From the NCBI GenBank assembly GCA_964579865.1, contig CAZOIS010000001.1:1084-65083 (forward strand): a DNA stretch of 64,000 nt, written 5' to 3'. Shown piece after piece: positions 5,950 through 35,958 of this stretch. The notes below the pieces were generated by a model. It saw only the letters and a program-made list of their open reading frames with translations, was not told where the DNA came from and did not search any database. The position numbers and the translations under genes are program-made. Each line of letters opens with the position of its first letter. Position 1 is the stretch's first letter. The DNA comes from an uncultured Lentisphaeraceae bacterium. Lineage in GTDB: Bacteria; Verrucomicrobiota; Kiritimatiellia; RFP12; UBA1067.

Positions 5950-5965
5950 TGCAAGTAGTGTGCCA
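5950..5965 (-). promoter_or_regulatory. sigma54 -24/-12 promoter (TGGCAC-ACTAC-TTGCA) for the HU-zinc-ribbon gene and probably the downstream pseudopilin module
   Basis: The reverse complement of 5950..5965 matches the consensus TGGCAC-N5-TTGCA exactly. Lies about 40 nt upstream of ATG 5911. Confidence 0.65.
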
Positions 5966-5993
5966 ATACGTGGCTTTTGGGGCTGTGAATGTT

Positions 5994-6009
5994 TGGCATT
6001 AATTCTGCT
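5994..6009 (+). promoter_or_regulatory. sigma54 -24/-12 promoter (TGGCAT-TAATT-CTGCT) for the PAS-PAS gene
   Basis: Correct GG-N10-GC spacing, about 48 nt upstream of ATG 6057. Lies back-to-back with the 5950..5965 box. Confidence 0.55.
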
Positions 6010-6056
6010 TTTTAAGTTTTTTACGAAATGAATCTTGCGTTGGGGAACAGTCAATC

Positions 6057-7361
6057 ATGGCCATGAAATTCTGGTTTGGCAAAAAAGGTACGGAGCCGGA
6101 TGAGAGCGCGGGCGCGACCGGTGCCCTTCCCGTGGCGACGCCGAATCGTGCGGAAAGTGGCGCTCCGCCGTCTCCCGCAGAATCGGCGACGTCTGCCGTG
6201 CCGCAAGGTCCGGACGCTGTTTCCGTCGGCGGAAGCCCGTCTGCCGGAATCCCGCCGGCACCCCGTGCGGCGGTGGACGTGGGTAGCGCGGCGCCGCTGC
6301 CCTTGGCGGTGTCGCCGCAGACGGTGTCAGGGCCCGAGGCCGGAGTGAACAAGGGGAGCGCCTCTTCATCTCCTGCCGCGGAAACGGCCGACGTTCCGCG
6401 GACGGTACTGAAAGCGGTCGGAGGAATCGCCCCGGTCCGTTTGACGGCAGTGCACCCCGCAGGGAGTGGGCCGCAGACGGCGGGATCGGCCCCGGTCGCA
6501 GGTGCCGGACGCCCGGTTTTCGCGTTACGGCCGAAAAACGACTCGACGGCCGCGCCGGCCGCGGTGGCGGAAATAAAGCCTCCGACGGGGGCTCAGGCTG
6601 AAGGGGGCCCCGCTCCCGCCGGAAAAATGGCGGGCGGGCTTGGCGACGGGAACGAGCTGATCCGCCCGAAGACCGATCAGCGGGCGCTCTATTACCAGCT
6701 GATGAACGGTCTGTACGATGCGGTCCTGATCCTGGACGATCAGGGGCATGTCGTGGACTCCAGCAAGCGGGTGTCGGAACTCTTGGGGTATTCGCGCGAA
6801 GACACGTGGGACTTGGGCATTGATAAGATCATTACCGGGATGACGCGGCAGATGTTCGAGCATCTCAGGCGCAGTTTGTCAGAGAGCAACCATGTGCTGA
6901 TCGACGCGCGGTGCTCTCGCCAGGACGGCACCTCGTTCTCGGGCGAGGTTGGCGTGAGCACGCTCTCGCTGACCACCGGTTCAAATATCGTTTTCGCGAT
7001 CCGCAATGTGGAACGGCGCAAGACCGCGATGGAGGACCTCCGCAAGTGTCAGGCGGCGCTCGACGTCGCGTTGGTGCCGGTGTTTGTGTGTGATACCGAC
7101 GGGTTCTTCCAGATGGTCAACCAGACGCTGCTCGACGCGTTCGGAATACCGGATGCGGCCCAGGCGAAAAGCGTGCGGTTCGTGGATCTGTTGCCCGATG
7201 CGGCCCGCTTTTTCCTGAGGGCGGCCTGCGGCGAGAAGGTCCATGAGAAGATCAGCGTCGCGACGCCGGACGGGATGCCGCTCAAACTCGAAATCTCCTT
7301 GGCACCGGTGCAGAGCGGCTCGAACATCACGGGCGTCGCGGGGTCGATCCTGCAGATGTGA
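6057..7361 (+). CDS. PAS-PAS protein with about 200-aa Pro/Ala/Gly-rich disordered N-terminus, no output domain
   Basis: ATG 6057. C-terminal 230 aa contains two PAS-like modules (LYDAVLILDDQGHVVDSSKRVSELLGYSRED..., ALVPVFVCDTDGFFQMVNQTLLDAFG...). N-terminus is low complexity. Confidence 0.8.
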   Translation: MAMKFWFGKKGTEPDESAGATGALPVATPNRAESGAPPSPAESATSAVPQGPDAVSVGGSPSAGIPPAPRAAVDVGSAAPLPLAVSPQTVSGPEAGVNKGSASSSPAAETADVPRTVLKAVGGIAPVRLTAVHPAGSGPQTAGSAPVAGAGRPVFALRPKNDSTAAPAAVAEIKPPTGAQAEGGPAPAGKMAGGLGDGNELIRPKTDQRALYYQLMNGLYDAVLILDDQGHVVDSSKRVSELLGYSREDTWDLGIDKIITGMTRQMFEHLRRSLSESNHVLIDARCSRQDGTSFSGEVGVSTLSLTTGSNIVFAIRNVERRKTAMEDLRKCQAALDVALVPVFVCDTDGFFQMVNQTLLDAFGIPDAAQAKSVRFVDLLPDAARFFLRAACGEKVHEKISVATPDGMPLKLEISLAPVQSGSNITGVAGSILQM

Positions 7362-7452: not shown

Positions 7453-8928
7453 CTATTCATCGCGGTAAGGCTTGTTCTGTTCGAACATGGTGAGCCGCGT
7501 CGTGAGCGCGGCCGCGTGTGTCGTGTCGCCGTTCTGCGTGTAGATCGCGGCGGCCCGGCGGGTGGCGTCGAGCGCCCGGCGGAAAGAACCGTACTCCGCT
7601 TGGGCGGCGCCGAGCACCTCCAGGGCTGTCGCGTCTTTGTCGCGGAGCAGGTCGTTCGCTTTCTCGGCCAGTTTGACGGCCTCTTTGCCGTCCCGCAGTT
7701 CTGGGAACGGCGACGTCGCCAGGATCCACGCCACTTCGCACATCGCGCCGGTGTTCTTGGCGTCCTCGGCCAGGGCGGCCCGGGCAGTCTGCAAGAGTTC
7801 GCGCGATTTGGCCATACGCCCTTGGCGCAACGCCTCTTCGGCCTTTTTCTTGAAGTCCAGACTGATGCCGGCGAGCCGGAATTTGGTCTCGATGTCCACT
7901 TTGTCCACGGCCTTGATGTAGGCGTCTTCAGCGGTGATGATGCCTTTGGCCGCCAGGCGCGTGAGTTCGTCGCTGAAGGTCTGCATGCCCGCCGTTCGGC
8001 CGGTCTGCATCACCGACGGGATCATGTGGGTCTTCGCCTCGCGGATCAGGGCCGAGACCGGCGTGTTGACGACCAGCACTTCGAAGGCGGCGATCCGCCC
8101 GCCCTCGATCTTTTTGCAGAGGGTTTGGGCCACGACGCCTTTGAGCGTATCGGCCAGCATGGAGCGGATCTGGTTCTGCTGTCCGGCCGGGAATTTGTCG
8201 ATCATGCGTTCGACGGTCGACGCCGCGCTGTTGGTGTGCAGGGTCGCGAAGACCAAGTGACCCGTTTCGGCGGTCTCGATGGCGATCTCCATGGTCTCAA
8301 GGTCGCGGATTTCGCCGATGAGCACGATGTCCGGGTCTTCGCGCAGGGCGGCGCGCAGGGCGCGGGCAAAGCTCGTTGTGTCGCGGTGGACCTCGCGCTG
8401 GTTGATGATGCACTGGTGCGGCGTGTGGACGAACTCGATCGGGTCTTCGATCGTGATGATGTGCTCGTTGCGCTGTCGGTTGATGTAGTCGATCATGGCC
8501 GACAGGGTGGTGGACTTGCCGCTGCCGGTCGGGCCGGTGACGATGACGAGGCCTTTTGAAAGCATGCAGAACTCGCGCATGACGTCCGGCAGGTTGAGGT
8601 CCTCGAAGGTCGGGATCCGCTCGGGAATCACGCGCAGGGACGCGCTCCACCCGCACATGTCGCGGTACCCGTTGACGCGGAAACGCGCCGTGCCGGGAAT
8701 TTCGTACGCGCAGTCGGTGTCCCACTCGTGCTCGAGCTGCCCGATGTTCTCCTCCGGCATGATCTCTTTCACGAGGTCGAACACCTGCTGGCTGGAGAGC
8801 GCCGGCTCGCCGGCGATCGGCGAGAGGGTGCCGTGCACGCGGATGTATGGCGTGCGGCCTGCGCAGAGGTGCAGGTCGCTGCCTTCGCCGGAAACCAGCG
8901 GGACGAGAAAGCGGTCAATGGAAGCCAT
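7453..8928 (-). CDS. pilT: PilT-type twitching-motility retraction ATPase with about 140-aa C-terminal TPR-like extension
   Basis: Walker A GPTGSGKSTT, IITIEDPIEF, REDPDIVLIGEIRD, GHLVFATLHT, and the PilT-specific ALIREAKTHMI (AIRNLIRE-like) motif. The protein is 491 aa, against roughly 345 aa for typical PilT proteins as I recall them. The tail (aa about 350-491) has TPR character. Confidence 0.9.
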   Translation of the reverse strand: MASIDRFLVPLVSGEGSDLHLCAGRTPYIRVHGTLSPIAGEPALSSQQVFDLVKEIMPEENIGQLEHEWDTDCAYEIPGTARFRVNGYRDMCGWSASLRVIPERIPTFEDLNLPDVMREFCMLSKGLVIVTGPTGSGKSTTLSAMIDYINRQRNEHIITIEDPIEFVHTPHQCIINQREVHRDTTSFARALRAALREDPDIVLIGEIRDLETMEIAIETAETGHLVFATLHTNSAASTVERMIDKFPAGQQNQIRSMLADTLKGVVAQTLCKKIEGGRIAAFEVLVVNTPVSALIREAKTHMIPSVMQTGRTAGMQTFSDELTRLAAKGIITAEDAYIKAVDKVDIETKFRLAGISLDFKKKAEEALRQGRMAKSRELLQTARAALAEDAKNTGAMCEVAWILATSPFPELRDGKEAVKLAEKANDLLRDKDATALEVLGAAQAEYGSFRRALDATRRAAAIYTQNGDTTHAAALTTRLTMFEQNKPYRDE

Positions 8929-8962: not shown

Positions 8963-11900
8963 CTAGGGGTTTTTCACGCGGAAGAAGCCTTGCTTGGCCT
9001 GCGCGGGGATCTCGGCTCTCAGCAGGATCTGGCGGCGTCCGTCCAGGGTGGTGCCGAGGATCTCGCGGTAGACGACCGGCAAGGTCTGCCAGTCAGCCGC
9101 CGAACCGGTCAGCGAGGGGGTCCACTCCAAGGTGTAGTCGACCTGGAGATAGCCCTCCACCATGAGCGCGACGGATCCGCCTGTCGCGGCGGCGTCGCCC
9201 GCCGCGCTGCTGACGCTGCGGCTCGCCATGACCGCCGGCGTGATCGACAGCGCCGTGACGCGCGCCTGCGCCGAAGCCGGCGGGGTCGGCAAGGTCGACG
9301 CCAGCACGAAGAGGGCGCCCAGCTTCACGTCCCGTTCGGGCATCAAGAAGGTGACGATCGGGCCGCTGTTTGTCAGGACATAGACATCGCCGACCCAGCC
9401 GACGAAGACATAGCCGTCGCCCGGAGCTCGGGCTTCCACGGTCAGCGCCGTCCCCTGCGGGTAGATCATGCGGTCGCGCGCCTCTTCGATGACGTCGGGC
9501 AGTCCGGCGAAGATCGAGGGGATCACATAGACCGTGTTCGTCGCGTCTGAGAGCGTGAGCTTGGAGGTCGGTGTCCAGAACCCGTCGCGCATCCAGGCGC
9601 AGTCCTTGAAGACGCTCACGTCGATGTCTTTCGTGTAGTCGAACAGGAAGTCGTGCCGCGTCTTCCGGGCGGTCTCGCGGTCGGATAACCCGTTCTTCAC
9701 CACGACCGAAGCGGTGGACCAGCTCTCCTCTTTGCCGGAAATCCAGCATTCGGGCTTGTCGTCCACCTCGCCCTTGTAATCCAGCCAGAAGTCCAGACGG
9801 TCGGCCACCGCTTCGCTGCAGGAGGCCCACTGCCACATCAGGATGCCCGTGCCGAAATTGGTCACGCTGAGCTTGGCGTGCTGGCTGTTGTTGACGTAGC
9901 CGAACTGGCCGAAGCGGATCGCGCTGTTGCCGCCCGGCGCGTCGTTGACCCACGTCACGCCGCCGTCCTCGCCGTCGAACGTCGCGATCGAGGACTCGCC
10001 GTTGACGTCCGGGACGTCCGGGGCGCAGCCCGTCGCGTCGACCATCGCCTGCGGGATCCAGATCAGACGGTCGAGCGTGATGGTGTTGTCGCGGACGAAA
10101 TAGCTGCCGTCGCGCTGGAAGCGCAGCGAGATCGAGGTGGCGCCCGAGACGAAGTTCGTCATCGCCTTCCACGCGTTGTTTTTGCCGGAGACGGCGCCGA
10201 CGAGCGTGGTGCCGTTGACGATGACTTCGATCTCGTCATACGCGGTTTCCGCGTTGCCCTTCCACCAGAACAGCAGCACGCCGTCGCCAGTGAAGTTTGT
10301 CGTGGTCAGCTCCACGTATTGTCCCGCGCCGACCGAAGGGCCGCCGAATTTGACGACGGGGTCGTCGTAGCGGACGCCGCCGTTGGACTCGGCCACGATG
10401 CCGGTCGGGGAGAACGCCGCGATGTCGAGTTTCTGACCGGCGATGGTGAGCGCGCCCGCCAGTTTCTCGGCGGCGGTTTGCGGACGGTAGACGGCGGTCA
10501 CGGTGACGCTGTTGGAGGGCATCGTGAAGGTCGTGATGGCCGCATTGGTGTTGGCAAAGGCCGCGCCGTTGGTCGAGACCCAATAGTTGAAGGTCTGCCA
10601 CAGCGGCGCCGCGTCGGCGATGATGCGCACTTCCGCGCCGGCGGGGTAAGCGCCTTCGGGCTCGCCCGTGCTCTCGTGGACCGCGTTCGGCCAGGCGCCG
10701 CCGTCGCGGCCGTTGATCATGGTCACGGTGAGGGTTTGCTGCCGGTAGAGCGCCCGCACGGTGATGTCGCGCGACGGCATCACCAGACTGGTGGCGGCGG
10801 CGTCCGGCTCGGCGAGCGTCTCCATGTCGCCGTCCCACTGGTCGAACTCCATGCCCGCCGGTGCCGGGTCGGCGGCGATGGCCACGGTTGAGCCGACTGC
10901 GTAAGTGCCGCTGCCTGAACCGTTCTGCACCGTGAGCGCGTAGGCGAACTGCGTCCAGGTGACGCTGTCGACCCAGCCGCAGTCGGAACCGACCTGAGCG
11001 GCGGAATCGTCCTTCGCGTAGATCCACTGCACGGCGTGTTCGGCGACGGAGAGCAGGTTGGTCTCGAACAGGAGCCAGCCGGATTTGTTGCCGCTGATGC
11101 GCGCGGCCTCGGCCCCGTCGATCATGAGTATCAGGAAATCATGATCCCGCTCAGAGGAGGTGCGCCAGTGGAAGGAGAGCTTGCCGCTGCCGGAATAGAC
11201 GGTGCCCAGCGTGACGGACGCGCTGTTGGAGACCGTGCCGTCGCCGCCGAGGCGGACCGCGAGGTTGCTGACCGCGCCTGCGGGCGGGGCGGCGTCAAGC
11301 AACACCGCATCGAACCCGTCCGGCGCGAAGAGGGTCTTCCCGGGCGTGCCCAGCTCGGCCGCCAGCGCGTCGGGGATCCAGAGGACCTTGCCGATCGTGG
11401 CGGTGTCGCTGCCCGCGCGGTCGCTGACGTCTTTCACGTACGACCATTGAAGCGTGTGCGGTCCGTCGCCGGCGACGAAGTTGGTCAGCACGCCGGACTG
11501 GGTGCCGCTGGCCGAGAAAACGTTCGTGCCGTCGACCGAGAAGCGGAAGAAGTCGTAGTCTTTCTCGCTGTTGACCTGCCACGGGAAGATCACGGTTCCG
11601 GCGTTGGTGTAGACCGTCGTGAAGAAGGCCGTCTGGTTGTCGCCGATCGGGCCGAGGGTCACGTGGTCGAGCCCGATGTTGGCGGCGGTGAGGTTGCCGA
11701 AGGTGACGGGCGGAGGAACGCCGAGCACCTGCTGGATCAGCTCATCCACGGGCACGGCGGTGAAGGTCGCGGTGACCGTGATGTTGCTGGGGCCCATCAG
11801 CACGGTGGTGGCGCTGGCCAGCGGGTCCGCGACGGTCGAGATGTCGCCGGTCCATCCGTCGAAGGTGTACCACAGGGCCGGGAGGTTCGCCGCGATGGCC

Positions 11901-14900
11901 ACGGTTGTTCCGCTGACGTACGACCCGCTGCCGGAGCCGTCCTCGACGGTCAGCGTGTAGTGCGGCACCGGCGGCGCGTTGGTGGTGTAGGTCGCGGTCA
12001 AGGCAAGGTCGTAAGCCGGCATCTGGAAGGTCGGGTGGAAATTCGTGATCCCCGCGCCGAGAACCGCGAGCGCGTTGGTGCCGGTCCAGCGGTCGAAGTA
12101 ATAGCCCGCCGCCGGCGGATCCGCGAGGATCGTCACGGCCGAGTTGGCGGCGAAGTAGCCCTCCTGACCGCCGCTGCCGCTGAGGATCGTGCCCTGGGTC
12201 AGGGTCAGCTTGTGGGTGGAGGTCCAGACCACGTTGCGCAGCCAGCCGCAATCCTCGAACATGCTGACGTCGTTATCCTTCTGATAGCGGAAGCTGCAGA
12301 TGTTCATCGTCGTGTCTTTTCCAGCGAGCAGCTCGGGCGTGACGGCGAACGACGAACTGTACCATGAGCCGTCGAGCTTGCCGCTGATCCAGTTGGTCTT
12401 GGCGCCGTCGATGTAGAAGCCGAGCGTGTCGTAGGCGCCCTCGCTCCGGGCCGTCCATTCCCACGTGAGGACGCCGGTGCCGAAGTTGGTGAAGGCGACC
12501 TGCGCGCAGAGGTTGTTGGTGACGTAGCCGAAGCGGCCGAGGCGGATGGCGTCGCCGCCGCCGGGCGCGTCGTGCACCCAGGCCACGCCGCCGTCCTCGC
12601 CCTCGAAATCGTTCTCCTCTTTGTCGCGGTCGCGTCCCAGGAAGAGCGGGTCATATTCGGCGTTGATGTTCGGGATGCAGGCGCCGGCGCCGAGTTCGTC
12701 GACCATGTCTTGCGGAATCCAGGTGACGCGGTCGAGCAGCAGGATGTTCTGGTGCACGTAGTAGGTGTCGTCGCGCGTGTAGCGCCAGGTGAGGTTCGAG
12801 ACGTTGGAGAGCCGGGCGTATCCGCACCACCATATTTTCGTGCTGTCGACGGTGTTGGTGTCCTTCATCGAGAAGACGGCCGAGTACGGGAAGCCGTTCA
12901 CTTCCAACTGGACGCCGTCGACGTCCTCCTCGGTGTCGCCGTGCCACCAGAACATCAGAATGCCGCTGCCGGTGAAGTTCGTGGTCGAGAGATACACGTT
13001 CTGGCCGGGGCCGACCGAGGGCCCGCCCATCTGGACGACCGGATCGTTGTAGCGGATGCCGCCCGTGGCTACGGCGACGACGCCGGTGGGCGAGAAATCG
13101 GTCACGGCGAGCGGCTGCCCGCGGATGGTGAAGGCGCTCGCCAGCTTTTCCGCCGCGGTCTGCGTCCGGTAGGTGGCGGTGACGGTGACGTCGTTGCCCG
13201 GCATCGTGAACATCGTGACGTCGGCGTCCGCGTCCGCGAAAACAGCGCCGTTGGTGGAGACCCAGCCGTCAAAGGTCTGCCCGAACGGGGCCGGGTCGGC
13301 GACGATGCGCACGAGCGCGCCGGGCGGATAGTCGCCCTCGGGCTCGCCGGTGCTCTCGTGGACGGGGTTGGGCCAGGCGCCCGCGTCGCGACCGTTGACG
13401 ACCGTGACGTTCATGGTCAGGACCTTGTAGAGGGCGCGGACCGTGATGTCCTTGCCGGGCATGACCAAGGTGGTGGCGGCGGCGAGCAGATTCGAAACCG
13501 TGTCGGTGTCGCCGCTCCAGCTGTCGAATTCCATGCCCGCGGCGGGCGCATCGGCCGTGATGCCCACGGTCTGGCCGGCCGGATACGTGCCGCTGCCGGA
13601 GCCGTTCTCCACGACCAGCGTGTAGGTGAAGAGCGACCACGCCGCGTTGTCGATCCACACGGCGTCGGCGCCGTTGAAGCCCGAGGCGTTCTTGGCATAG
13701 GACCAGCGGACAACGTGGGCGCCCGTGGTCATCAGGTTGGTGGCGAAGGAGACCCAGCCGGTCGCTTTGCCGCTCAGGCGCGCCGCTTCGACGCCGTCGA
13801 TCGTGCAGACCGCGACGTCCGAGAGCTGGTTCGAGGTGCACCAGTTGAAGGTGAACAGGCCCGAGCCGTTGAGCACGACCTCGACGCTGTTGGTGGTGCC
13901 GTCGGCGAAATAGGGGATGCCGTTGCCGTCCAGCCCGCCCAGTTTGACGGCCGCGCCGTCCACCGCGCCTGCGGGCGCGGCGGTATCGAGGAAGCAGGCC
14001 TCAAAGCCGTAGGGGAAGGGCAGGGGATCGCCTGGGCGGCCGTCGGGGAAGTTGATCGGCTGGCCGGGGACGCCGAGTTCGGCGGCGAGCGGCTCGGGAA
14101 TCCACGTGACCGCGCCGACCCAGCCGGCGTCTTCCAGATCGTATCCGGCGCTGTCCTTGCTGTATTCCCAGCGGATCGTGTGCGCGCCGGCGCCGGCGAC
14201 GTACTGCGTGACGACGCAGGTCGGGACGTTGCCGGAAATGGCGTTCGTCTCGACGCCGTCGATGATGAGCGCCAAGCGGTCGCAGCCCGCCTCGCTGCTG
14301 ACGCGCCACGGGAAGAGCAGCGTGCCCGCGTTGGTGTAGACGCAGGAGAGGAAGGCGGTCTGACCGTCACCGATCCCGCCGAGCCTGACCTCGGGGACGC
14401 TGGGGTCGACGTCGGGGAAGTCGATGTTGTCAAACGTGACGGGCAGGGGAATTCCGAGGATCCGGCTCAGGTACTCGTCCAGCGACAGCGCCTGATAGGT
14501 GGCCGTGACGGTGATGTTGTGGTCGGGCATGACGAGCGTCGTGTTGGTGGCGGAGGTGTTCGCCACGGTGGCGGTGTCGCCGATCCAGCCGTTGAAGACG
14601 ATCCACGCGTTCGTGGGGTTCGCGCCGATGGCGACCACCGTGCCGTTCGAATAGCTGCCGCTGCCGCTGCCGTTGACCACGGTCAGGTCGTTGATCGACT
14701 TCGCGCGCTCGTAGGCGCCCATGTCGACGATGGACCCCTGAATGCGCGCGCCGCCCGCGGCGTCGCGGGGCCCGTACGCATACGCGTTGTTGCCGGCATT
14801 GATGCAGGGCGAGGTGTCCGACAGCAGGAAGGTGCCGGCCTTGAAAAGCGGATCGGTGATGAGGTTGTTGCCGCCGTCGCGGGTCTCGAGGTAGTCGTTG

Positions 14901-27727: not shown

Positions 27728-27780
27728 AGATGGGCAGGGGTTGCGGCGGCGGGTGTAATTCAGCCTGAAAAGAGCAGAAG

Positions 27781-27849
27781 GATTAAGATTAGGATTAAGA
27801 TTACGAGTAAGAAGAGAAACGTTTATTCCTAATCGTAATCTACTTGAAG
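27781..27849. repeat. inverted GATTA[ACG] hexamer arrays (locus B), upstream of the pilin sigma54 promoter
   Basis: GATTAA GATTAG GATTAA GATTAC GAGTAA GAAG - agaaacgtttatt - CCTAAT CGTAAT CTACTT GAAG. Confidence 0.9.
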
Positions 27850-27857: not shown

Positions 27858-27872
27858 AAGCCGGACCTGCCC

Positions 27873-27896
27873 AAAAGGCGCCTGCCGCGCCTTTTT
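27873..27896 (-). terminator. rho-independent terminator after the NtrC-type activator gene
   Basis: AAAAGGCGC-ctgcc-GCGCCTTTTT. On the minus strand the stem is followed by a U-run. Lies 42 nt downstream of the stop at 27938. Confidence 0.7.
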
Positions 27897-27937
27897 CTCA
27901 AAAATGACACGCATTTTTGCAAAAACGAAAAACCGGG

Positions 27938-29326
27938 TCAGTTTGCCGGGGTGTCCGCCGACTCGTCGGAGAGCTTCCGGTAGAGGGTGGCGAGGCTGAC
28001 TTGGAGGGTCTGGGCGGCCTTTTCCTTGTCGCCGTGCGTGGAGGTGAGGATCTGGTCGAGATACTCCTTCTCCTTGAGCTTGAGAAACCCCTTGAGCGAG
28101 GTGCTCCCCATCGTCGCGGACGCGGGGTGCTCCGCCTGTAGGGCCTTGGCCTCATTGGCGCGGCTGACGATGCGCGGCGGCAGGAGGTCGGGCGAGATCG
28201 TGTCGGACTGCAGGAACGTCACGGCGTGTTTGATGGCGTTTTCCAGTTCGCGCACGTTGCCGGGCCACTTATATGCCACCAGCACGTCGGCCGCCTCTTG
28301 GGAAAGTCCGGGCTGGGCCTTGAATCCGGCGGTCTCGGAGCGGATGAAATGGCGCGCGAGGGGCAGGATGTCTTCCGGGCGGTCGCGCAGCGCGGGGATG
28401 TCGAGCGTGATGACGGCAAAGCGGTAATAGAGGTCGGCCCGGAAAGTGCCTTGGGCCACCAGTTGCTCCAGGTTGGAGTTGCTGGCCGCGATCACGCGCA
28501 CGTCGACCGGGATGTTTTTGGTGCCGCCGACGCGCCGGATTTCCTTTTCCTGCAAAACGCGCAGGAGCTTGCCCTGCAGCAGGAGCGGGAGGGAAGAGAT
28601 TTCGTCCAGAAAGAGCGTGCCGTTGTTGGCGGTTTCGAAAAGCCCCTCTTTTTCGGCCACGGCACCGGTGAAAGCGCCTTTGACGTGGCCGAACATCTCG
28701 GATTCGAGCAGGTTCTCGGGCAGCGCCGCGCAGTTCACCGCCACCCAGGGTTTTTCCTTGCGGGGGCTGGTGTTGTGGATGGTGCGGGCGATGACCTCCT
28801 TGCCGGTGCCGCTCTCGCCGTTGATGAGGACCGTGGCGGCGGTGGGGCCGACGCGCTGGATCATATCGCACACCTGCAGCATGGTGCTGTTGGTGGCGAT
28901 GAGGTTCTCGAACTGGTAGCGGAGCGGGGCGTTGGGATCCGTGGAAATGACGGCGGCGCGGCTCTTGACGTGCTCTTCCGCGCGCTTGACGGTGGCAAGC
29001 ATCTCGTCGACTTTGAACGGCTTGGTGAGATAGTCGAAGGCCCCGTTCTTCATGGCGTCGATGGCGGTTTCGACCGAGGCATAGGCCGTCAGCAGGATGA
29101 CCGGCAAATCGGGATGCAGCGTTTTGATCTCACGGAAAAGCGTCATGCCGTCCATCGGCGCCATGCGCAGGTCGGTAATGACCAGGTCGAAGGCGTCCTT
29201 CTTGATAAGATCGAGCGCGGCATTCCCGTCTTTGGCCGTCACGGTTTCGTACCCGTTGGCCTTCAGCAGGCTCTGAAGCAGGAGCAGAATGCGCGCTTCA
29301 TCATCTACGATCAGGATTTTAGACAT
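27938..29326 (-). CDS. sigma54-dependent response regulator (NtrC family, PilR-like): REC + AAA+ + Fis-type HTH
   Basis: REC (ILIVDDE...DLVITDLRMAPMDG...KP), Walker A GESGTGKEV, GAFTGA loop (GHVKGAFTGA), C-terminal HTH AAQTLQVSLATLYRKL. Confidence 0.9.
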   Translation of the reverse strand: MSKILIVDDEARILLLLQSLLKANGYETVTAKDGNAALDLIKKDAFDLVITDLRMAPMDGMTLFREIKTLHPDLPVILLTAYASVETAIDAMKNGAFDYLTKPFKVDEMLATVKRAEEHVKSRAAVISTDPNAPLRYQFENLIATNSTMLQVCDMIQRVGPTAATVLINGESGTGKEVIARTIHNTSPRKEKPWVAVNCAALPENLLESEMFGHVKGAFTGAVAEKEGLFETANNGTLFLDEISSLPLLLQGKLLRVLQEKEIRRVGGTKNIPVDVRVIAASNSNLEQLVAQGTFRADLYYRFAVITLDIPALRDRPEDILPLARHFIRSETAGFKAQPGLSQEAADVLVAYKWPGNVRELENAIKHAVTFLQSDTISPDLLPPRIVSRANEAKALQAEHPASATMGSTSLKGFLKLKEKEYLDQILTSTHGDKEKAAQTLQVSLATLYRKLSDESADTPAN

Positions 29327-29418
29327 GACAGACAGTTCCGGTTCCGGTCAAGGTTGCCGAGTTATTAGGCCCCCAGTATGCCGGAAACCGGATCAGAAGA
29401 CAATCCCCGAGATGAGGG

Positions 29419-30507
29419 TCAATTGTTGACGACCGTGCCGAGCTTGAAGATGGGCAAATACATCGCGACCACGATGCTGCCGATGATGACGCCGAGGAAC
29501 ACCATGAGCAGCGGCTCCATCAGGGACGTCAGCGAGGACAGCGTGGTTTCCACCTCGTCGTCGTACGTGTCCGCCACGCTTTCGAGCATTTCGTCGATGC
29601 GGCCGCTCTTTTCGCCGGCCGCAATCATGCGGATCATGAGGATCGGCAGGCAGGGCTTCCCTTCCAGCGAAGAGCTGAGCGTGTTACCCTGCTCGATGCC
29701 GCTGCGCGCCGAGAGGATGGCACCTTCGATGACCTTGTTGCCCATGGACTGGGCGACGACCATCATGGCGTCCAGGATCGGCACGCCGCTGGACAGCATC
29801 TGCGCGAACAGGCGGCAGAAACGGGCGACGGAGACCTTCTGGGTCAGTTCGCCGAAAATGGGCAGTTTGAGCATGAACTGGTCGTATTTGTAGCGCCCCG
29901 CCGGGGTGGCGCGCCATTTCTTGAAACTGATGACGCCGGCGATGGCGCCGGCCAGCAGGAGATACCAGTAACTCCGGATGAAGTCGCTGATGTTCACCAG
30001 GAACTGGGTGGGGCCCGGAAGCGCCGAGCCGAAGTCCGCGAACATGGCCGCGAAGACCGGCACCACGAAGGTGATCAGGCCGCCGGCGATGAGCATGGCC
30101 ATCGAGAGGACCACCGTGGGGTAGGTCATGGCGGACTTGACCTTGCGCAGCAGCCGGGCGGAGGAGTCGAGCATGACGGCCAACCGCTTGAGCACGGGCG
30201 CGAACTGGCCGCTTTTCTCGCCGGCCGCGACCATGTTGACGTACATGTCGTCGAAGATCTGCGGGAAGTGGCGCAGGCCGTCGGAGAACGGCATGCCGCT
30301 TTCGATGTTCTCCCGCAAGAGCTTGAGCACGGTCTTGAAGCCGGCGTGCGCGCACTGGTCCTCCAGCGTCGACACGGCGGAGAGGATGGACATGCCCGCG
30401 TTCAGCATGCTGGCGGTCTGCCGCGTGAAGGGGATCAGCTCGCGTTTTTGGATCTGCTTGACGCCGCTGACGCGGACCTGGGCGACTTTGAGTTTCGGTT
30501 CTGACAT
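29419..30507 (-). CDS. pilC: type IV pilus / T2SS platform protein (GspF/PilC family)
   Basis: 362 aa with two T2SSF repeats (FTRQTASMLNAGMSILSAVSTLEDQ...; FCRLFAQMLSSGVPILDAMMVVAQS...) and three TM segments. Lies 21 nt downstream of pilB. Confidence 0.85.
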   Translation of the reverse strand: MSEPKLKVAQVRVSGVKQIQKRELIPFTRQTASMLNAGMSILSAVSTLEDQCAHAGFKTVLKLLRENIESGMPFSDGLRHFPQIFDDMYVNMVAAGEKSGQFAPVLKRLAVMLDSSARLLRKVKSAMTYPTVVLSMAMLIAGGLITFVVPVFAAMFADFGSALPGPTQFLVNISDFIRSYWYLLLAGAIAGVISFKKWRATPAGRYKYDQFMLKLPIFGELTQKVSVARFCRLFAQMLSSGVPILDAMMVVAQSMGNKVIEGAILSARSGIEQGNTLSSSLEGKPCLPILMIRMIAAGEKSGRIDEMLESVADTYDDEVETTLSSLTSLMEPLLMVFLGVIIGSIVVAMYLPIFKLGTVVNN

Positions 30508-30528: not shown

Positions 30529-32253
30529 TTATTCGCTGCCGGTGACTTCGAGCGCGGCGTTAAGCGAGGTGGCGCCGTTCCTGACTTTCAACAAGCCGAC
30601 TTCTTTCAGGGTCTTCATGCCCTCTTTGACGGCGATCTCGCGCAGGACGGCGGAGGTCGCGCCCTTGACGGTCGCGTTGCGGATGGCCTCGCTCACGGGG
30701 AGCACTTCCATCATGGCGCCGCGGCCCTTGTAGCCGGTCCCGTTGCATTTGCCGCAGCCGCCGGGCTCGAAGATGGTCGCGCCCGCGAAGAAGTCGGGGT
30801 CGATCTGGTTGGCGACCAGGACCTCCGGGTTGATTTCGGCCGGCTTCTTGCAGACGGGGCAGAGTTTGCGGAAGAGGCGCTGGGCCTGGGCGAGGATCAG
30901 CGAGGAGGCGATCAGGAACGGCGGCACGCCCATGTCGATCAGGCGGGCGATCACGCCGGAGGCGTCGTTGGTGTGGAGCGTGCTCAGCACGAGATGTCCG
31001 GTGAGGGCGGCCTTGACCGCGATGTCGGCGGTTTCGCCGTCGCGGATTTCGCCCACGAGCACGATGTCGGGGTCTTGGCGCAGCACGGAGCGCAGGACCG
31101 AGGCGAAGGTCAGCCCGGTCTGCTGGTTCACGTGCACCTGGTTGACGCCGGGGAGCTGGTATTCCACCGGGTCTTCCGCAGTGACGATGTTGACGTCCGG
31201 CTGGTTCAGGTCTTGCAGACAGGAGTAAAGCGTGGTGGTCTTGCCGGAGCCGGTCGGGCCGGTCACCAGAATGATGCCGTGCGGCTGCTCGATCGCGTGG
31301 CGCATGGCCGCATACGCGAAATCGTCCAGTCCCAAGGCGGCCAGGCTGGGGGCCAAGTTGGTCTTGTCCAAGGTACGCATCACGACTTTTTCGCCGTGGA
31401 TCGTCGGCAGGATGCTGACGCGGATGTCGACCTCTTTTTTGAGCGCTTTGATCTTGAAGCGGCCGTCCTGCGGGTTGCGGCGTTCCGCGATGTCGAGGTC
31501 GGACATGATCTTGATGCGCGAAACGATGGCGTTGTGGAGCGATTTCGGGGGGCTGGGGCGCTCGATGAGGGCCCCGTCGATGCGGTAGCGCAGGCGCGAG
31601 CTCTTCTCCATGGCCTCGAAGTGGATATCGCTCGCGCCGGTGCGGAGCGCTTCGACGAGCATCATGTTCACCATGCGGATGACGGGGGCCTCTTCGGCGG
31701 TCTCGAGCGTCCGGTCGATGCTCTCTTCCTGCTTTTGCGGCTCGCTGGAGAACTCGATGTCGGCGTCCTGCGCCTTCATGATGTTTTCCATGGCCAGGCT
31801 GGGGTTTTCCGCATCCTTGCGGGCCTGCACGCGGCTGAGCGCGTCGACGACCTCTTTTTCGGCCGCGACAAGGGGAACGATCTCCAAATGCGTGCTGCGG
31901 GCCACCTCTTCCTGCGCCAAAAGGTCGAACGGGTCGCCGAAGGCGACGGTGAGCCGGCGCCCCAGCTTCATGAGCGGCAGGGCTTTCAGGCGCGTCCAGA
32001 GCTGCGGCGGAGCCAGTTCCAAAAGTTCTGCGGGGGCGATGAGCGTCGTCGGGAGGCTGATCGGCGCCATGTTGAAATACGCCGCGATCGTGAGCGTCAA
32101 GGCATCGGACGTCACCGTCTTGCTTTGCGTCAGGAAACGCTCAAGGGGAACCTTGCCCGCTTCCGCCAGGGCGTTCTGAAGCTGTTCTTCCGTCAGAACG
32201 CCGCGTTTGACGAGCGCGCTTTGAAAACTCGGATAGTGGACCGGCTGAGGCAT
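30529..32253 (-). CDS. pilB: type IV pilus assembly ATPase (GspE/PilB family)
   Basis: Start placed at ATG 32253 (GGAG 8 nt upstream) rather than the track start 32295. T2SSE_N region, Walker A GPTGSGKTTT, VTAEDPVEY, RQDPDIVLVGEIRD, and tetracysteine CPVCKKP...CGKCNGTGYKGR. Confidence 0.9.
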   Translation of the reverse strand: MPQPVHYPSFQSALVKRGVLTEEQLQNALAEAGKVPLERFLTQSKTVTSDALTLTIAAYFNMAPISLPTTLIAPAELLELAPPQLWTRLKALPLMKLGRRLTVAFGDPFDLLAQEEVARSTHLEIVPLVAAEKEVVDALSRVQARKDAENPSLAMENIMKAQDADIEFSSEPQKQEESIDRTLETAEEAPVIRMVNMMLVEALRTGASDIHFEAMEKSSRLRYRIDGALIERPSPPKSLHNAIVSRIKIMSDLDIAERRNPQDGRFKIKALKKEVDIRVSILPTIHGEKVVMRTLDKTNLAPSLAALGLDDFAYAAMRHAIEQPHGIILVTGPTGSGKTTTLYSCLQDLNQPDVNIVTAEDPVEYQLPGVNQVHVNQQTGLTFASVLRSVLRQDPDIVLVGEIRDGETADIAVKAALTGHLVLSTLHTNDASGVIARLIDMGVPPFLIASSLILAQAQRLFRKLCPVCKKPAEINPEVLVANQIDPDFFAGATIFEPGGCGKCNGTGYKGRGAMMEVLPVSEAIRNATVKGATSAVLREIAVKEGMKTLKEVGLLKVRNGATSLNAALEVTGSE

Positions 32254-32278: not shown

Positions 32279-32294
32279 AGCAGAAAGGGTGCCA
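32279..32294 (-). promoter_or_regulatory. sigma54 -24/-12 promoter (TGGCAC-CCTTT-CTGCT) of the pilB-pilC(-activator) operon
   Basis: Same -24 and -12 hexamer/pentamer as the pilin promoter. Lies about 26 nt upstream of ATG 32253, with GGAG in the predicted leader. Confidence 0.6.
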
Positions 32295-32344: not shown

Positions 32345-32360
32345 CGGCACGGATATTGCT
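32345..32360 (+). promoter_or_regulatory. sigma54 -24/-12 promoter (CGGCAC-GGATA-TTGCT) of the TPR-T2SSE_N gene
   Basis: Correct spacing, 26 nt upstream of ATG 32386, with AGAGGGAG between. Divergent partner of the pilB promoter, 50 bp away. Confidence 0.55.
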
Positions 32361-32385: not shown

Positions 32386-33246
32386 ATGGCCGAGCCAGAC
32401 CCGAAAATGATTGAGGCGATCGACTTTTTTGAAAAGATGTTGCAGACGATGCCGGGCGACCGGACGAGTCTGGAATTTTTGTCGGTCGCGTATGAGCAGA
32501 CCGGTCAGCACGAGAAGCGTCGGGACTGCCTGATCCGGCTGGCGGACACGTTGCTCAGCGAGAAGGATTACGATAATGCGCAGGTCATCGCGGGCTATTT
32601 GAGCGCTCACTCGGATTATCCGCCGGCGCGGGCGGCCGTGGAGCGGGTGGCCGAGGTGATCCAAGGTCAGATCCTCCAGAGCCAGTACCACCGAGAAGTC
32701 CAAGGGCTGGGGGCCGGCGTGCCGGTGGCTCCGGGGCAGGCCGAGACCCCCATGGCCTCCGATCTGGGCTTGGAAGTCCACGCCTTGTCCCGCGCCGCGT
32801 CCACGGCGGAGATGGATCTGGTCTGGCTGTGGAAAGAGCGCGAGTTCCTGCCGAAAGAGCTGTGCATGGACGTGCTGCACATCCTGACCGATCGGCCCGT
32901 GGCGGACACGCCGATGCTGATTTCGGCGCTGGCGCTGGTGGATGAGCAGCACCCGGAGTTGACGGACAAGCTGATGGAGGCGATGCAGCGGGCGAGCGAG
33001 CTGCCGGCGATCCCGCTGGAGCTGTTCGAGGTGCCGCCGGCCTGCGTTTCGCTGCTCGCGTCGGCCTTCGTGCACATCCGGGGCGTCCTGCCGTTCGCGA
33101 TGCTGGGCAACGAGGTGCTGGTGGCGGTGTTGAATCCGCTGAATCCGGCCTTGCAGGAAGAGACGGCGGCGCGGATCGGGCGCCCTTGCCATTTCTTTCT
33201 TGTGCATCCGCGGGCGTGGCTCAAGGCGGCCGAGAAGATCATCTGA
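32386..33246 (+). CDS. stand-alone TPR-like + T2SSE_N (GspE N-terminal-like) domain protein
   Basis: AGAGGGAG upstream of ATG 32386. N-terminal helical repeats (AIDFFEKMLQTMPGDRTSLEFLSVAYEQTGQHEKRRDCLIRLADTLLSEKDYDNA). The C-terminus VSLLASAFVHIRGVLPFAMLGNEVLVAVLNPLNPALQEETAARIGRPCHFFLV fits the T2SSE_N pattern. Confidence 0.75.
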   Translation: MAEPDPKMIEAIDFFEKMLQTMPGDRTSLEFLSVAYEQTGQHEKRRDCLIRLADTLLSEKDYDNAQVIAGYLSAHSDYPPARAAVERVAEVIQGQILQSQYHREVQGLGAGVPVAPGQAETPMASDLGLEVHALSRAASTAEMDLVWLWKEREFLPKELCMDVLHILTDRPVADTPMLISALALVDEQHPELTDKLMEAMQRASELPAIPLELFEVPPACVSLLASAFVHIRGVLPFAMLGNEVLVAVLNPLNPALQEETAARIGRPCHFFLVHPRAWLKAAEKII

Positions 33247-35911
33247 GGCAGGCGAACCGCATCAGGATCTCTTTGAGTTCGCTGCGGGTGTAAGGCTTGC
33301 TGAGGAAGCCGTTGTAGGCCTCCGATTCGAACATCGTCCGGATTCGCTCTTCGCTGTGCCCGGAAATGATCACGGCGGGGACTCCGGGCTTGCGCAACCG
33401 GAGCGTGGCGAGCAGCCGGACGTTGTCGAACGTGCCGATCTGCGCGTCCAGCAGGACCAGGTTGACCGACTCCGCATGCTTTCTGAAAAGCGCCAGGGCC
33501 TCGCGCTTGCTGGCCGCCGCCATAGCGTCCACGCCGAGGGAACGCAACACGACCATGGTGGACTGCAGGATGGCGCGGTCGTCTTCGACCAGCAGGACAC
33601 AGGGGCGGGCCGAGGTCTGCGGTGCCGGCGTCGTCGGCCGGGCCGCCCCCGTTCCGGCCGCCGCCGGCACGGCCGCCGCCGCGGAGAAGGACTTGTCCGA
33701 GGCTTTTGCAACCGGGAGCCAGACGCGGAAACTGGTGCCCTTGCCCGGCTCGGAGGCGATCGCGATGCCGCCGTTATGAACGTCGACAATGCCGAACACG
33801 GTGGCCAAGCCGAGGCCGCGGCCGACGGCCTTGGTCGAGAAGAAGGGCTCGAACATCCGGTCGATCACTTCTTTCGGGATGCCCGAACCGGTGTCGTCGA
33901 TCTGGAAGACCACGCCGTCTCCCTGCGCAAGCGCGTGCGTGCTGAAAAAGTCGCCGGCGCTCTGCGCGGTCAGGGTGAACGGATAGGTACTGATGCGAAT
34001 GTGGCCGCTGGAGCCGTTCATGGCCTCCGAGGCGTTTTTGAGCAGATTGATGATGACTTTCCAGAACTGGTGGGGGTCGACATCGACGAACGGGAGGCTG
34101 GGGGTCAGCTTCAATTCGAGAATGACGTTCGACGCGATGACGCCGTTCATCAGTTTTTCCAAGTCAAGGATGACGTTGTTGGGGTCCTGCCGCTTGAACG
34201 CGATGCGGGTGTGGCCCGCATAGGTCATGAGCTCGCGCGTCAGCGCCGCCCCCTTGCCGGTGGCCTGGCGAATCGTCCCGACCGCTTCGCTCTCGCCTTC
34301 CGTCGGCTGGGTCCAGGTGACCTCCACGGTGTTCTGGATGATGGCAAGGATGTTGTTGAAATCGTGCGCGATGCCGGCCGCCAACGTCCCGAGGCTCTCC
34401 ATTTTCTGGATTTTGGCGAGACGCTCCTCCACCTGTTCCCGCGTCTCGCGGTCGTGCCATTCCTTGGTGACGTCGCGCAGCACGACCAGCGTGAAATACT
34501 CGTCCATGCGGCTGATGCGCGTCTCGAAATGGCGGTAGGAGCCGTCGGTTTCGCGGCAGGAGAGGATCACCATCTGAATGCGTTTCGAGCGGAAAACCTC
34601 CGTGACGGCTTCGCGGAACGCTTCGCAGTCGGAGTCGGGGAAGAGCGGCGGCGAGAGGGGCCGCCCGGCGATCAGGCCGGGGATCGGATGCGCGTAATCG
34701 GGCTGCTTGTGGATGGTGACCAGGTTTGCCAGCGAGTCGAAGACGCACAGGCAGTCGGGCATGCCCGCGATCAGAGCGTGCCGGTGCTCCTCGGCCAGGG
34801 TGTTCTGCCGGGTTTTGCGGGCTAAGGCCGCCAACATTTCGTTTACGCTTTTCGCCAATACGCCGAACTCGTCGTCCTTCGGCCAACTCAGGGCTTCACA
34901 GTCTCCATCCAGATGGTGTTCGCCGATGGCCCGGATCTGTGCGATGAGCGTGGTGAGGGGGTTCAGCACAATGCGCGTCTGGAGCCAGAAAATGGGCAAC
35001 ACGAACACGATGCCCACGCACGCGATAAACGTCGTCAGCCACCCCAGCGCGATGCTGGCGAGCGAGGAGAAAGAGCCGGGAAGACGGATGGAAATGGCGG
35101 ACACCTCGTGCCCGAGAAGGTCGCTGACGGGCATCACCGCCTCGAAGGTGTTCTCGCCCAGATGCCAGCGTCCGCCGGCAGGATAGGTCAGGACATCCTG
35201 GAAAACCGGTGTCGGTCCGGCCGGCAGGGCCGCGGCTGTCGCTGTGGCCGGGGTGGCCGACGGGGCGGTCAGGGCGACTTGCATGCCGGCTGTGGCGGCG
35301 TGAATCCGGCTGAGTAGGCTGGCGTTGTTGTGGAGAAGCGAGCCGAGAGCGATAAATCCTTTGGTTTGGCCATCCGCCGCTTTGATCGGCGCGAGAGCAA
35401 AGAAGGCGGGCCGGCCGCGGAAAACGATGATGCCCGAAGGCGCGCTTTTCCCGGTGCGGAGGGCTGGCCGCAGGGGCGAAGATGACGCGAAATAAGGCTG
35501 GATTTCGCGCGTGTCGACCACGTGGGGCGGTTCGCCGGGAAAGAGCGCGCAGCCTTTGATGAAAGCACCGTCCGCGCCGATGGCGATGGCCAGATGGATG
35601 GGGGGCCCCTTGGAAAAGGAACCGAGTTGCGTCATCAGAAACTCATGCGTGATTTCGCCGTCGGACCGGGACACGGCCTCGGCTGACAGGGCTGCGGTCT
35701 GCTGGAGCTTCTGGATTTCCGCATAGACGATCGTCTTAATGTCGGTGCCGATCGCCCGGATTTCCTGCTCCGTGTCGCGGATCAATTGGACCAGAATGTA
35801 GCGACCACCCAGATAAAACGCGCTGAGTAACCCCAGAAGCGTTAACGCCGAGACCAACCCGAATTGCGTGCGGATGCTGCGCAAGGCTAATAATATGGAA
35901 CGTGCCTTCAT
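33239..35911 (-). CDS. hybrid sensor histidine kinase (periplasmic sensor, HAMP, PAS, HisKA, HATPase_c, REC)
   Basis: Start placed at ATG 35911 (MKARSILLAL...), because the track start (TTG 35959) lies inside a sigma54 box. H-box LAAGIAHDFNNIL, G-boxes DDTGSGIP / GRGLGLGLATV, C-terminal REC VLLVEDD...LVLLDAQ. Confidence 0.85.
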   Translation of the reverse strand: MKARSILLALRSIRTQFGLVSALTLLGLLSAFYLGGRYILVQLIRDTEQEIRAIGTDIKTIVYAEIQKLQQTAALSAEAVSRSDGEITHEFLMTQLGSFSKGPPIHLAIAIGADGAFIKGCALFPGEPPHVVDTREIQPYFASSSPLRPALRTGKSAPSGIIVFRGRPAFFALAPIKAADGQTKGFIALGSLLHNNASLLSRIHAATAGMQVALTAPSATPATATAAALPAGPTPVFQDVLTYPAGGRWHLGENTFEAVMPVSDLLGHEVSAISIRLPGSFSSLASIALGWLTTFIACVGIVFVLPIFWLQTRIVLNPLTTLIAQIRAIGEHHLDGDCEALSWPKDDEFGVLAKSVNEMLAALARKTRQNTLAEEHRHALIAGMPDCLCVFDSLANLVTIHKQPDYAHPIPGLIAGRPLSPPLFPDSDCEAFREAVTEVFRSKRIQMVILSCRETDGSYRHFETRISRMDEYFTLVVLRDVTKEWHDRETREQVEERLAKIQKMESLGTLAAGIAHDFNNILAIIQNTVEVTWTQPTEGESEAVGTIRQATGKGAALTRELMTYAGHTRIAFKRQDPNNVILDLEKLMNGVIASNVILELKLTPSLPFVDVDPHQFWKVIINLLKNASEAMNGSSGHIRISTYPFTLTAQSAGDFFSTHALAQGDGVVFQIDDTGSGIPKEVIDRMFEPFFSTKAVGRGLGLATVFGIVDVHNGGIAIASEPGKGTSFRVWLPVAKASDKSFSAAAAVPAAAGTGAARPTTPAPQTSARPCVLLVEDDRAILQSTMVVLRSLGVDAMAAASKREALALFRKHAESVNLVLLDAQIGTFDNVRLLATLRLRKPGVPAVIISGHSEERIRTMFESEAYNGFLSKPYTRSELKEILMRFACLR

Positions 35912-35942
35912 CAAAAAACCGAGTTCAGATATCGGTAACAGT

Positions 35943-35958
35943 AGCAGAATATGAGCCA
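35943..35958 (-). promoter_or_regulatory. sigma54 -24/-12 promoter (TGGCTC-ATATT-CTGCT) of the hybrid sensor kinase
   Basis: Correct GG-N10-GC spacing, about 32 nt upstream of ATG 35911. One mismatch in the -24 element. Confidence 0.45.

Follow-up and report, generated by a model that had tools for sequence, protein, structure and literature searches.

Probable sigma-54 promoters throughout a type IVa pilus locus of Kiritimatiellia

The window studied here, a stretch of 64,000 nucleotides (64 kb) from contig CAZOIS010000001.1, contains between 5.9 and 36 kb a type IVa pilus (T4aP) locus of Kiritimatiellia, a lineage of the Planctomycetes-Verrucomicrobia-Chlamydiae (PVC) group, in which eight -24/-12 boxes of the sigma-54 type precede eight predicted transcription units. 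Judging from the sequence and from its conservation among relatives it is highly probable that seven of these units start at genuine sigma-54 promoters and that the eighth, a hybrid kinase gene, starts at a sigma-70-type promoter on which a box is superimposed, giving signal-gated expression. A sigma-54 promoter gives no transcription at all before an ATPase activator has fired, so that placing every unit behind one would mean that the pilus is built only on signal.

The locus was delineated on a gene map derived from codon statistics and annotated with Pfam and NCBIfam. PilB-type and PilT-type ATPases, a PilC platform, a secretin and prepilin-type pilins are all encoded: PilB is recognized as T2SSE with an MshEN domain, PilC as T2SSF, the secretin and the pilins through the Pfam families Secretin and N_methyl, and the PilT-family ATPase through TIGR01420 (453.6 bits, exceeding the cut-off). 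A major pilin of 118 residues and several N_methyl pseudopilins lie in the region from 1.9 to 36 kb, together with signalling genes for two PAS proteins, a HisKA-only protein, a HAMP hybrid kinase and a stand-alone MshEN-domain protein. Four small genes occupy the PilM/N/O/P position with a single weak match (pilM, E = 0.003); curated family names for these genes were rejected, every score being under the cut-off, and their assignment rests on position. PilB relatives, of which the one from locus L001 is 98% identical, place the window in Kiritimatiellia.

When both strands of the window were searched with the pattern YGGCWY-N6-TGCW, matches were found at all eight sites that a preliminary description of this DNA had listed, and in our independent gene map each of the eight is intergenic and directed at the adjacent gene, as had been proposed. 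The total of 10 matches compares with 2.56 +/- 1.53 in 100 dinucleotide-preserving shuffles, none of which reached 10. Two matches had not been listed before, one at 28959 on the plus strand (antisense in the activator gene) and one at 56123 on the minus strand (in a beta-helix gene); both are in coding DNA and fit the chance rate. Dinucleotide shuffling of each intergenic region 5,000 times (3,502 nt in total) gave 0.09 +/- 0.30 expected matches with a maximum of 2, against the eight observed; the earlier rough arithmetic had suggested few chance matches in 64 kb and well under one in an intergenic total then put at about 3.8 kb. The eight boxes are also the top eight scores on either strand of a matrix approximating the published sigma-54 consensus, ranging from 13.4 to 18.5 bits as compared with 12.8 for the best coding match, and at every one of them GG and GC lie 10 nt apart within the extended consensus TGGCAC-N5-TTGCW. 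Each of the three divergent intergenic regions of the pilus locus carries a pair of boxes, and the three divergent regions between 36 and 64 kb carry none. Orientation and distance to the start codons are compatible with promoters throughout; counting the C of GC as -12, the predicted 5' untranslated leaders of boxes 1 to 8 are 28, 37, 2, 4, 56, 15, 15 and 21 nt long.

Conservation was gauged in 141 related loci (1.7 Mb together), of which 80 are pilB-centred loci from metagenome-assembled genomes of Kiritimatiellia, Lentisphaerae and Victivallales (1.23 Mb) and 61 are metagenome loci found via the HU-Zn protein described below, the region upstream of each orthologue being inspected. Gene order is widely kept: hybrid kinase, MshEN gene (opposite strand), pilB, pilC, activator, pilin. 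On the correct strand the strict pattern occurs upstream of pilB in 35/77 loci, of the MshEN gene in 19/49, of the pilin gene in 28/34, of the hybrid kinase gene in 6/16 and of pilM in 3/5; upstream of pilC it was found in 1 of 68 loci, and upstream of the activator gene in none of 40. With the matrix at a threshold of 11 bits and two near-identical loci excluded, a box precedes the HU-Zn gene in 39 of 42 loci (down to 50% protein identity), PAS1 in 23/23, pilM in 5/5, the pilin gene in 34/35, pilB in 35/70, the MshEN gene in 22/48 and the hybrid kinase gene in 8/15; the controls gave 2/67 for pilC, 0/7, 0/8 and 0/12 for three internal operon genes and 5.3% for random 320-nt windows. Strict matches in the 1.23 Mb of pilB-centred loci number 154, approximately 94 of them at orthologous promoter positions, and the other 60 or so are near the chance rate.

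In alignments the GG and GC blocks are invariant and the five-base spacer and the flanks vary freely. The consensus of 158 non-redundant orthologous sites is tTGGCAY-N5-YTGCT, again with GG and GC invariant, and the six unscored positions downstream of these sites are approximately 85% A+T. Because the blocks are kept at the same places while spacers and flanks drift, boxes 1-7 appear to be under selection as sigma-54 promoters, and very probably all seven are real ones, with footprinting that strongly backs boxes 1, 2, 3, 5, 6 and 7 and reasonably backs box 4. The proposal that pilus machinery, minor pilins and sensors, and not the pilin gene alone, depend on sigma-54 is thereby supported by conservation.

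Box 1 (TGGCAC-ACTAC-TTGCA, 5950-5965, minus strand), with 18.5 bits the top score of the window, is predicted to serve the HU-Zn-ribbon gene (4964-5911) from a start near 5939, and probably also drives the downstream genes g4250, a pseudopilin gene (3703-4239) and g1954, an order of four genes that is kept among relatives. Box 2 (TGGCAT-TAATT-CTGCT, 5994-6009, plus strand, 17.0 bits) would serve the gene of a PAS protein, PAS1 (6057-7361), from a start near 6020. The two boxes stand back to back, 28 nt apart (5966-5993), and in 31 of 35 distinct loci (L082-L130 included) this gap measures 23-31 nt, with a median of 27 and outliers of 37, 47, 51 and 55; its sequence is not conserved despite the held spacing, and the HU-Zn box sits at a constant 37-46 nt from the ATG. 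Such a gap leaves no room for an enhancer between the two promoters, and the classical enhancer position of each lies within the transcribed region of the other. The product of the HU-Zn gene (315 residues) joins an HU-family DNA-binding domain to two zinc ribbons, and the gene is kept beside the pilus genes with a sigma-54 box of its own. HU/IHF-type proteins bend DNA at sigma-54 promoters, and as a speculation the HU-Zn protein might be an architectural co-factor of these promoters. In its divergent neighbour PAS1 the N-terminal peptide, M(A)MKFWFGKK, is strikingly conserved.

The second divergent pair consists of box 3 (TGGCAT-CATTT-ATGCT, 20571-20586, minus strand, 16.0 bits) and box 4 (CGGCAT-GATTT-GTGCT, 20811-20826, plus strand, 13.4 bits), 224 nt apart. 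From box 3 we predict a unit of approximately 13 kb that comprises a pilM-like gene (19542-20558), three small genes, the secretin gene (15753-17669), a repeat protein gene (8963-15670) and the pilT gene (7453-8928), and in which there is no internal box and no gap of more than 82 nt. From box 4 the predicted unit runs through PAS2 (20841-21974), a minor pilin gene (21971-22435) and the genes at 22462-24621 and 24671-25762, perhaps as far as the gene of the HisKA protein (25988-27127). Both boxes end 12-14 nt before conserved start codons (20556-20586 and 20811-20843), the predicted starts near 20560 and 20837 falling 2 nt ahead of the ATG at 20558 and 4 nt ahead of the ATG of PAS2, respectively, and the predicted leaders have no Shine-Dalgarno sequence. 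A similarly short distance is seen in L006, L018, L019 and L024, the four informative relatives, in which the GG-N10-GC of box 4 is retained 12-19 nt before the ATG, these loci being too few for statistics.

Several features of these two units may be recorded here. In three loci of Lentisphaerae type (L043, L060, L066) the sequence TTGCACGGAACTTGCT is kept upstream of pilM; it is sigma-54-like, with TG replacing the GG at -24. The repeat protein within the pilus operon, between the secretin and pilT genes (minus strand), has 2,235 residues, an N-terminal beta-helix and no fewer than 8 InlB B-repeat (Flg_new_2) domains; L081, L082, L084 and L088 have it, and L086, L092, L093, L100, L126 and L130 lack it, pilT directly following pilQ in these six. 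In PAS2 two PAS domains but no kinase domain were detected, and the 379-residue HisKA protein gives a weak HisKA match under the Pfam cut-off and no detected HATPase_c; both may work with the hybrid kinase as partners in phosphotransfer or as phosphatases.

Box 5 (TGGCAC-GCGGC-CTGCT, 27712-27727, minus strand) is predicted to drive the major pilin gene (27289-27645), which is followed by a strong terminator (27225-27259), through a 56-nt leader with a Shine-Dalgarno sequence, and its conservation spans Lentisphaerae and Victivallales. Within the leader (27679-27695, minus strand), approximately 6-22 nt past the predicted start, there is an inverted repeat, CCGAC-N6-8-GCCGG, that is invariant in 12 of 12 close orthologues, and at this place more distant loci carry another conserved hairpin, GGGC-N9-GCCC. 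The repeat could be an operator or a 5' stem-loop of the mRNA; as an RNA hairpin it was not accepted, since an invariant repeat offers no covariation that would back a structure.

Box 6 (TGGCAC-CCTTT-CTGCT, 32279-32294, minus strand) and box 7 (CGGCAC-GGATA-TTGCT, 32345-32360, plus strand, 15.9 bits) form the third pair, with predicted leaders of 15 nt that begin at the Shine-Dalgarno sequence. Box 6 would transcribe pilB (30529-32253) and pilC (29419-30507), with possible read-through into the activator gene; hardly any orthologue with at least 80% PilB identity lacks it, though the length of the intergenic region ranges from 110 to 650 nt, and in the window's own clade there is no sigma-70-like promoter upstream of pilB. 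The predicted target of box 7, which is present in essentially all loci of that clade, is the gene of the MshEN-domain protein (32386-33246, plus strand). This stand-alone protein ends in an MshEN domain, the cyclic di-GMP-binding type also found at the N-terminus of PilB; its gene is divergently paired with pilB in approximately 50 loci, and its 3' end overlaps by 8 nt, in convergent orientation, that of the hybrid kinase gene (33239-35911, minus strand).

The gene at 27938-29326 (minus strand) encodes, as the preliminary description had it, the only bacterial enhancer-binding protein of the window by domain annotation (Pfam Response_reg, Sigma54_activat with E = 2.8e-71, HTH_8): a receiver domain, an AAA+ sigma-54 interaction domain with an intact GAFTGA loop at residues 217-222, and a Fis-type helix-turn-helix. 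It adjoins the pilin gene in more than 30 loci. Its best NCBIfam matches, AtoC, NtrC and ZraR, are all far under their cut-offs, leaving it outside the curated PilR family, and no kinase gene is adjacent to it, the nearest being those of the HisKA protein and the hybrid kinase; we regard the activator as PilR-like by context.

A candidate enhancer, TTTTTGCAAAAA-TGCG-TGTCA-TTTT-TGAGAAAAA, lies at 27888-27935 (minus strand) directly after the stop codon of the activator gene and approximately 160-210 nt upstream of the pilin -24 box. Its TGTC-type half-sites and its palindromic TGCAAA/TTTGCA arms would suit a helix-turn-helix of the PilR/NtrC type. The element is kept in place in ten close orthologues, and a profile finds it in 5 loci outside its training set. 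The exact word TTTTGCAAAA occurs twice in the 64-kb window, the second time between the pilM and PAS2 promoters, where a second candidate enhancer, TTCTCG-TTTTTGCAAAAAA-GG-TTTGCAGAA-CA-GAGAAAAAAA, is found at 20719-20764 (plus strand), approximately 45-90 nt upstream of box 4 and 135-180 nt upstream of box 3. A profile built from pilin-upstream sites alone matches this site with E = 0.038 in the window, and resembling sequences are found in the pilM/PAS2 region of L006, L019, L043 and L060. For the HU-Zn promoter an intragenic enhancer was considered at 6075-6084 (TTTGGCAAAA, one mismatch from the enhancer word, approximately at -136) and was rejected because the variable base is the wobble position of a Gly codon inside the TGCA core, so that it is the peptide MKFWFGKK that is conserved and not the DNA. 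Both candidate enhancers have hairpins beside them: a GC-rich one with a T-run, GGCCCCGAAAAGGGCC-TTTTTTT (20766-20781, minus strand), abuts the pilM/PAS2 motif where no gene ends, and another with a T-run (approximately 27866-27886, minus strand), resembling a terminator of the activator gene, abuts the pilin-side motif. Two tandem copies of GGATTAAGATTA (27780-27803), not seen in relatives, lie between the candidate enhancer and the pilin -24 box and may form an AT-rich bend.

The preliminary description had spoken of one sigma-54 regulon. As far as the boxes go this stands; in the sense of a single activator it is not supported, as the motif is confined to the pilin and pilM/PAS2 regions, and likely the local activator drives three promoters and not eight. 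A stronger form of the proposal, in which one local PilR-like activator drives all eight promoters including that of its own operon and so closes a positive feedback loop, is improbable in our estimation. It draws on the activator being the only one encoded in the window, on the precedent of Xanthomonas oryzae, where pilR itself is RpoN2-dependent, and on the fact that between pilC and the activator gene of the window no terminator was detected, so that box 6 transcripts could read through. Against it stand, besides the distribution of the enhancer-like motif, the gaps between back-to-back boxes, which are not conserved in sequence, and the start of the activator gene itself. In the 92-nt gap between pilC and the activator gene there is a sigma-70-type promoter, TTGTCT-N17-CATACT (29375-29403, minus strand), and the corresponding TTGYCT-N17-TAtAcT is seen in 20 of 21 orthologues as compared with 7% of random windows; several orthologues (L006, L019, L021) have a strong terminator-like hairpin after pilC, and a sigma-54 box precedes the activator gene in 0/40 loci. 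With a conserved promoter of its own, positive feedback on the activator could amount at most to read-through: the idea that it belongs to a sigma-54 operon survives in that form and fails as a conserved feature. A housekeeping-type promoter makes sense here because the activator must pre-exist any firing of a sigma-54 promoter.

Box 8 (TGGCTC-ATATT-CTGCT, 35943-35958, minus strand, 14.8 bits), upstream of the hybrid kinase gene, is ambiguous. Overlapping it is a sigma-70-type promoter (35938-35967, minus strand) with a -35 element TTGCCA (35967-35962), an 18-nt spacer and a -10 element TACTGT (35943-35938). The TGGCTC block is invariant in 7 of 15 hybrid kinase orthologues and absent in the others, and nearly all of the 15, those that lack GG included, retain TTGYYN-N17/18-TAnnnT, in many cases with a TG ahead of the -10; a loose sigma-70-type pattern is present in 13/17 as compared with 7% of random windows. 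The claim that box 8 is a sigma-54 promoter holds for position and score and only in part for conservation, and the site may serve as a dual promoter or put a brake on the sigma-70 one. The same overlay, TTGCCA-a-TGGCAC-N5-TTGCT-TTAATAT, is found upstream of pilB in a sister clade (L021, L022, L024); the closest relatives of these loci (L020, L023, L072) have a sigma-70-type promoter alone, and the window's clade has the sigma-54 box alone. That promoter types differ at the same position among sister clades indicates that sigma-54 and sigma-70 promoters have been exchanged or overlaid during evolution.

These overlaps lend something to a reading in which sigma-54 holoenzyme binds the boxes mainly as a brake, occluding sigma-70-type promoters: box 8 lies exactly inside one, and so do the superimposed pilB sites next to relatives with the sigma-70-type promoter only. 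As an account of the whole set it is quite unlikely, as boxes 1-7 have no overlapping sigma-70-type promoter in the window's clade, and upstream of the MshEN gene (1/23) and the pilin gene (6/34) the sigma-70-type pattern does not clearly exceed the random rate. In the box-bearing intergenic regions of the window no sigma-70 consensus promoter was found, the box 8 overlap excepted. Reading all boxes as sigma-70 promoters was likewise rejected, since TTGGCA resembles a -35 element but its spacing to any -10-like hexamer is wrong; this reading was accepted only for box 8 and for pilB in the sister clade. From the regions before the activator and hybrid kinase genes, where it is kept, a housekeeping promoter consensus for the lineage of TTGYCT-N17-TATAMT is obtained, to which TTGACA-N18-GAAAAT (38606-38635), before the gene of an M6 peptidase, is a good match.

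Very little probability attaches, in our view, to the possibility that another factor, a different sigma factor or a repressor, recognizes the motif and that its likeness to sigma-54 sites is coincidental. The searchable literature is without experimental transcription work on Kiritimatiellia or Lentisphaerae, and we infer the presence of rpoN in the genome from the GAFTGA-bearing activator only, which leaves this reading some room; yet conservation falls on precisely the positions that define the sigma-54 consensus, GG and GC being invariant at a fixed 10-nt spacing, an activator with a sigma-54-contacting GAFTGA loop sits in the locus, and a pilin gene beside a PilR-type regulator is a classical sigma-54 target. 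That AT-richer intergenic DNA yields the boxes by chance or through its composition, for which only the two coding matches at the chance rate could be cited, is already refuted, with a vanishingly small probability left to it, by none of the 5,000 intergenic shuffles exceeding 2 matches against 8 and by boxes kept in up to 100% of orthologues while the adjoining bases vary.

A number of observations weigh against seven genuine sigma-54 promoters and a superimposed eighth, and these should be set beside the conservation. The matrix that ranks the boxes only approximates the published consensus, and it was not fitted to the window. Box 4 is the weakest of the eight, and its orthologues mostly have AGGC (AGGCAT) and not YGGC, so that the strict pattern misses them. 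Boxes 3 and 4 are so near their start codons that almost no leader would be left on the transcripts, an unusual arrangement. The enhancer motif was not found near boxes 1, 2, 6, 7 and 8, other profile matches in the whole window having E > 4, and box 8 lies in the spacer of a better-conserved sigma-70-type promoter. Finally, the window contains no rpoN gene, and no RpoN-box peptide was found in six frames of the window and the 141 loci (1.7 Mb).

Taking seven sigma-54 promoters and one superimposed site as the preferred reading, the locus could work as follows. RNA polymerase with sigma-54 would sit on the boxes in a closed complex and begin transcription only on ATP hydrolysis by an AAA+ enhancer-binding protein, such that the whole pilus machine would be made on signal and not constitutively. 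The local NtrC/PilR-type response regulator, expressed from its own sigma-70-type promoter, most probably would bind TTTTGCAAAA...TGTCA...TGAGAAAA and activate the pilin promoter and the divergent pilM/PAS2 pair, and the pilB/MshEN and HU-Zn/PAS1 pairs would probably use an activator encoded elsewhere, intragenic sites or an enhancer-less activator. The sequences themselves show where the boxes stand, their statistical excess and their conservation, the enhancer-like motif and the domains of the activator; from these we infer sigma-54 dependence, start sites and the assignment of activator to promoters. A more far-reaching proposal, that in Kiritimatiellia the entire T4aP machine is sigma-54-gated, in part through an undescribed back-to-back pair (23-31 nt, no enhancer between) and with a superimposed sigma-54/sigma-70 switch, is tentative, and we would sooner expect it to fail in some part than to hold in full. 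Were it true, the back-to-back pair would need an enhancer-independent activator, as proposed for chlamydial CtcC, or sites in the neighbouring transcribed region, and boxes superimposed on sigma-70-type promoters would constitute a built-in switch between constitutive and signal-dependent expression.

Sigma-54 is generally associated with pili and flagella (PMC3162934), and PilS-PilR/sigma-54 control of the major pilin gene is established in Pseudomonas aeruginosa, Myxococcus xanthus and Geobacter sulfurreducens (PMC7170775, PMC6058289). As in those systems an NtrC-family regulator gene lies beside the pilin gene here, the pilin gene has a canonical -24/-12 promoter and an upstream candidate activator site with TGTC-type half-sites, and the order pilB, pilC, regulator, pilin resembles that of Myxococcus and Geobacter. 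Unlike in those systems, which belong to Proteobacteria and Myxococcota, the lineage is PVC, the machinery (pilM-to-pilT and pilB-pilC), pseudopilin and sensor units carry canonical boxes, no pilS-like kinase gene is found directly beside the regulator gene, and the regulator scores below all curated cut-offs.

The statement, made in the preliminary description, that classically only the pilin gene depends on sigma-54 overlooks the RpoN2-PilRX system of Xanthomonas oryzae pv. oryzae, in which GG-N10-GC was reported for 12 of 13 pilus units and reduced expression of most units for rpoN2 and pilR mutants, RpoN2 being shown to bind directly at pilA, pilC and pilR only (PMC7170775). The idea of a pilus-wide sigma-54 regulon, which the present locus appears to share, is already explicit in that work (PMC7170775). 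The sites reported in Xanthomonas are the minimal GG-N10-GC only and pilR is sigma-54 dependent, whereas here the full consensus is present and phylogenetically conserved and the regulator gene has a sigma-70-type promoter; at the level of sequence the evidence is cleaner here than in that precedent.

With the flagellar hierarchies our locus would have in common a whole envelope-spanning machine on sigma-54 promoters under two-component control. Those hierarchies (FleQ/FlrA-FlrC in Pseudomonas and Vibrio, FlgSR in Campylobacter and Helicobacter) concern a different machine and have tiered activators and a downstream sigma-28 class, and no tiering is evident here. Chlamydiae, PVC relatives, use sigma-54 with CtcB-CtcC for envelope and secretion genes, and CtcC has no DNA-binding domain; it offers a model for enhancer-less promoters, but the activator here has HTH_8, and no activator lacking a DNA-binding domain was seen in the window or the related loci. 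Divergent sigma-54 promoter pairs that share an enhancer occur in E. coli at zraP/zraSR and hyc/hyp. The pilM/PAS2 pair, with a motif between its boxes, fits this shared-enhancer model; the HU-Zn/PAS1 gap, only 23-31 nt long and unconserved, has no room for a shared enhancer. We found no literature on sigma-54 or pilus regulation in Kiritimatiellia or Lentisphaerae.

Since sigma-54 control of pili is well known and a pilus-wide precedent exists in Xanthomonas, the advance is in scope and architecture and not in kind, and the extension of a known kind of regulation to a new phylum appears well supported by the conservation data. What is new are the spacing-constrained back-to-back promoter pair, the nearly leaderless predicted transcripts and the superimposed sigma-54/sigma-70 promoters. 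The boxes amount to a testable regulatory map for organisms without genetics, giving precise predicted transcription starts and a lineage-specific sigma-54 consensus, and the housekeeping consensus should be useful in annotating genomes of Kiritimatiellia type. The tight divergent pair and the superimposed promoters are compact natural designs that could inform on sigma-54 function without a classical enhancer.

An Rfam scan of the 64-kb window matched no family. In the unrelated remainder of the window, from 36 to 64 kb, there are genes for a GntR regulator, a peptidase, a sialidase-like protein, glycoside hydrolases, kinases, agmatine deiminase and ferritin.

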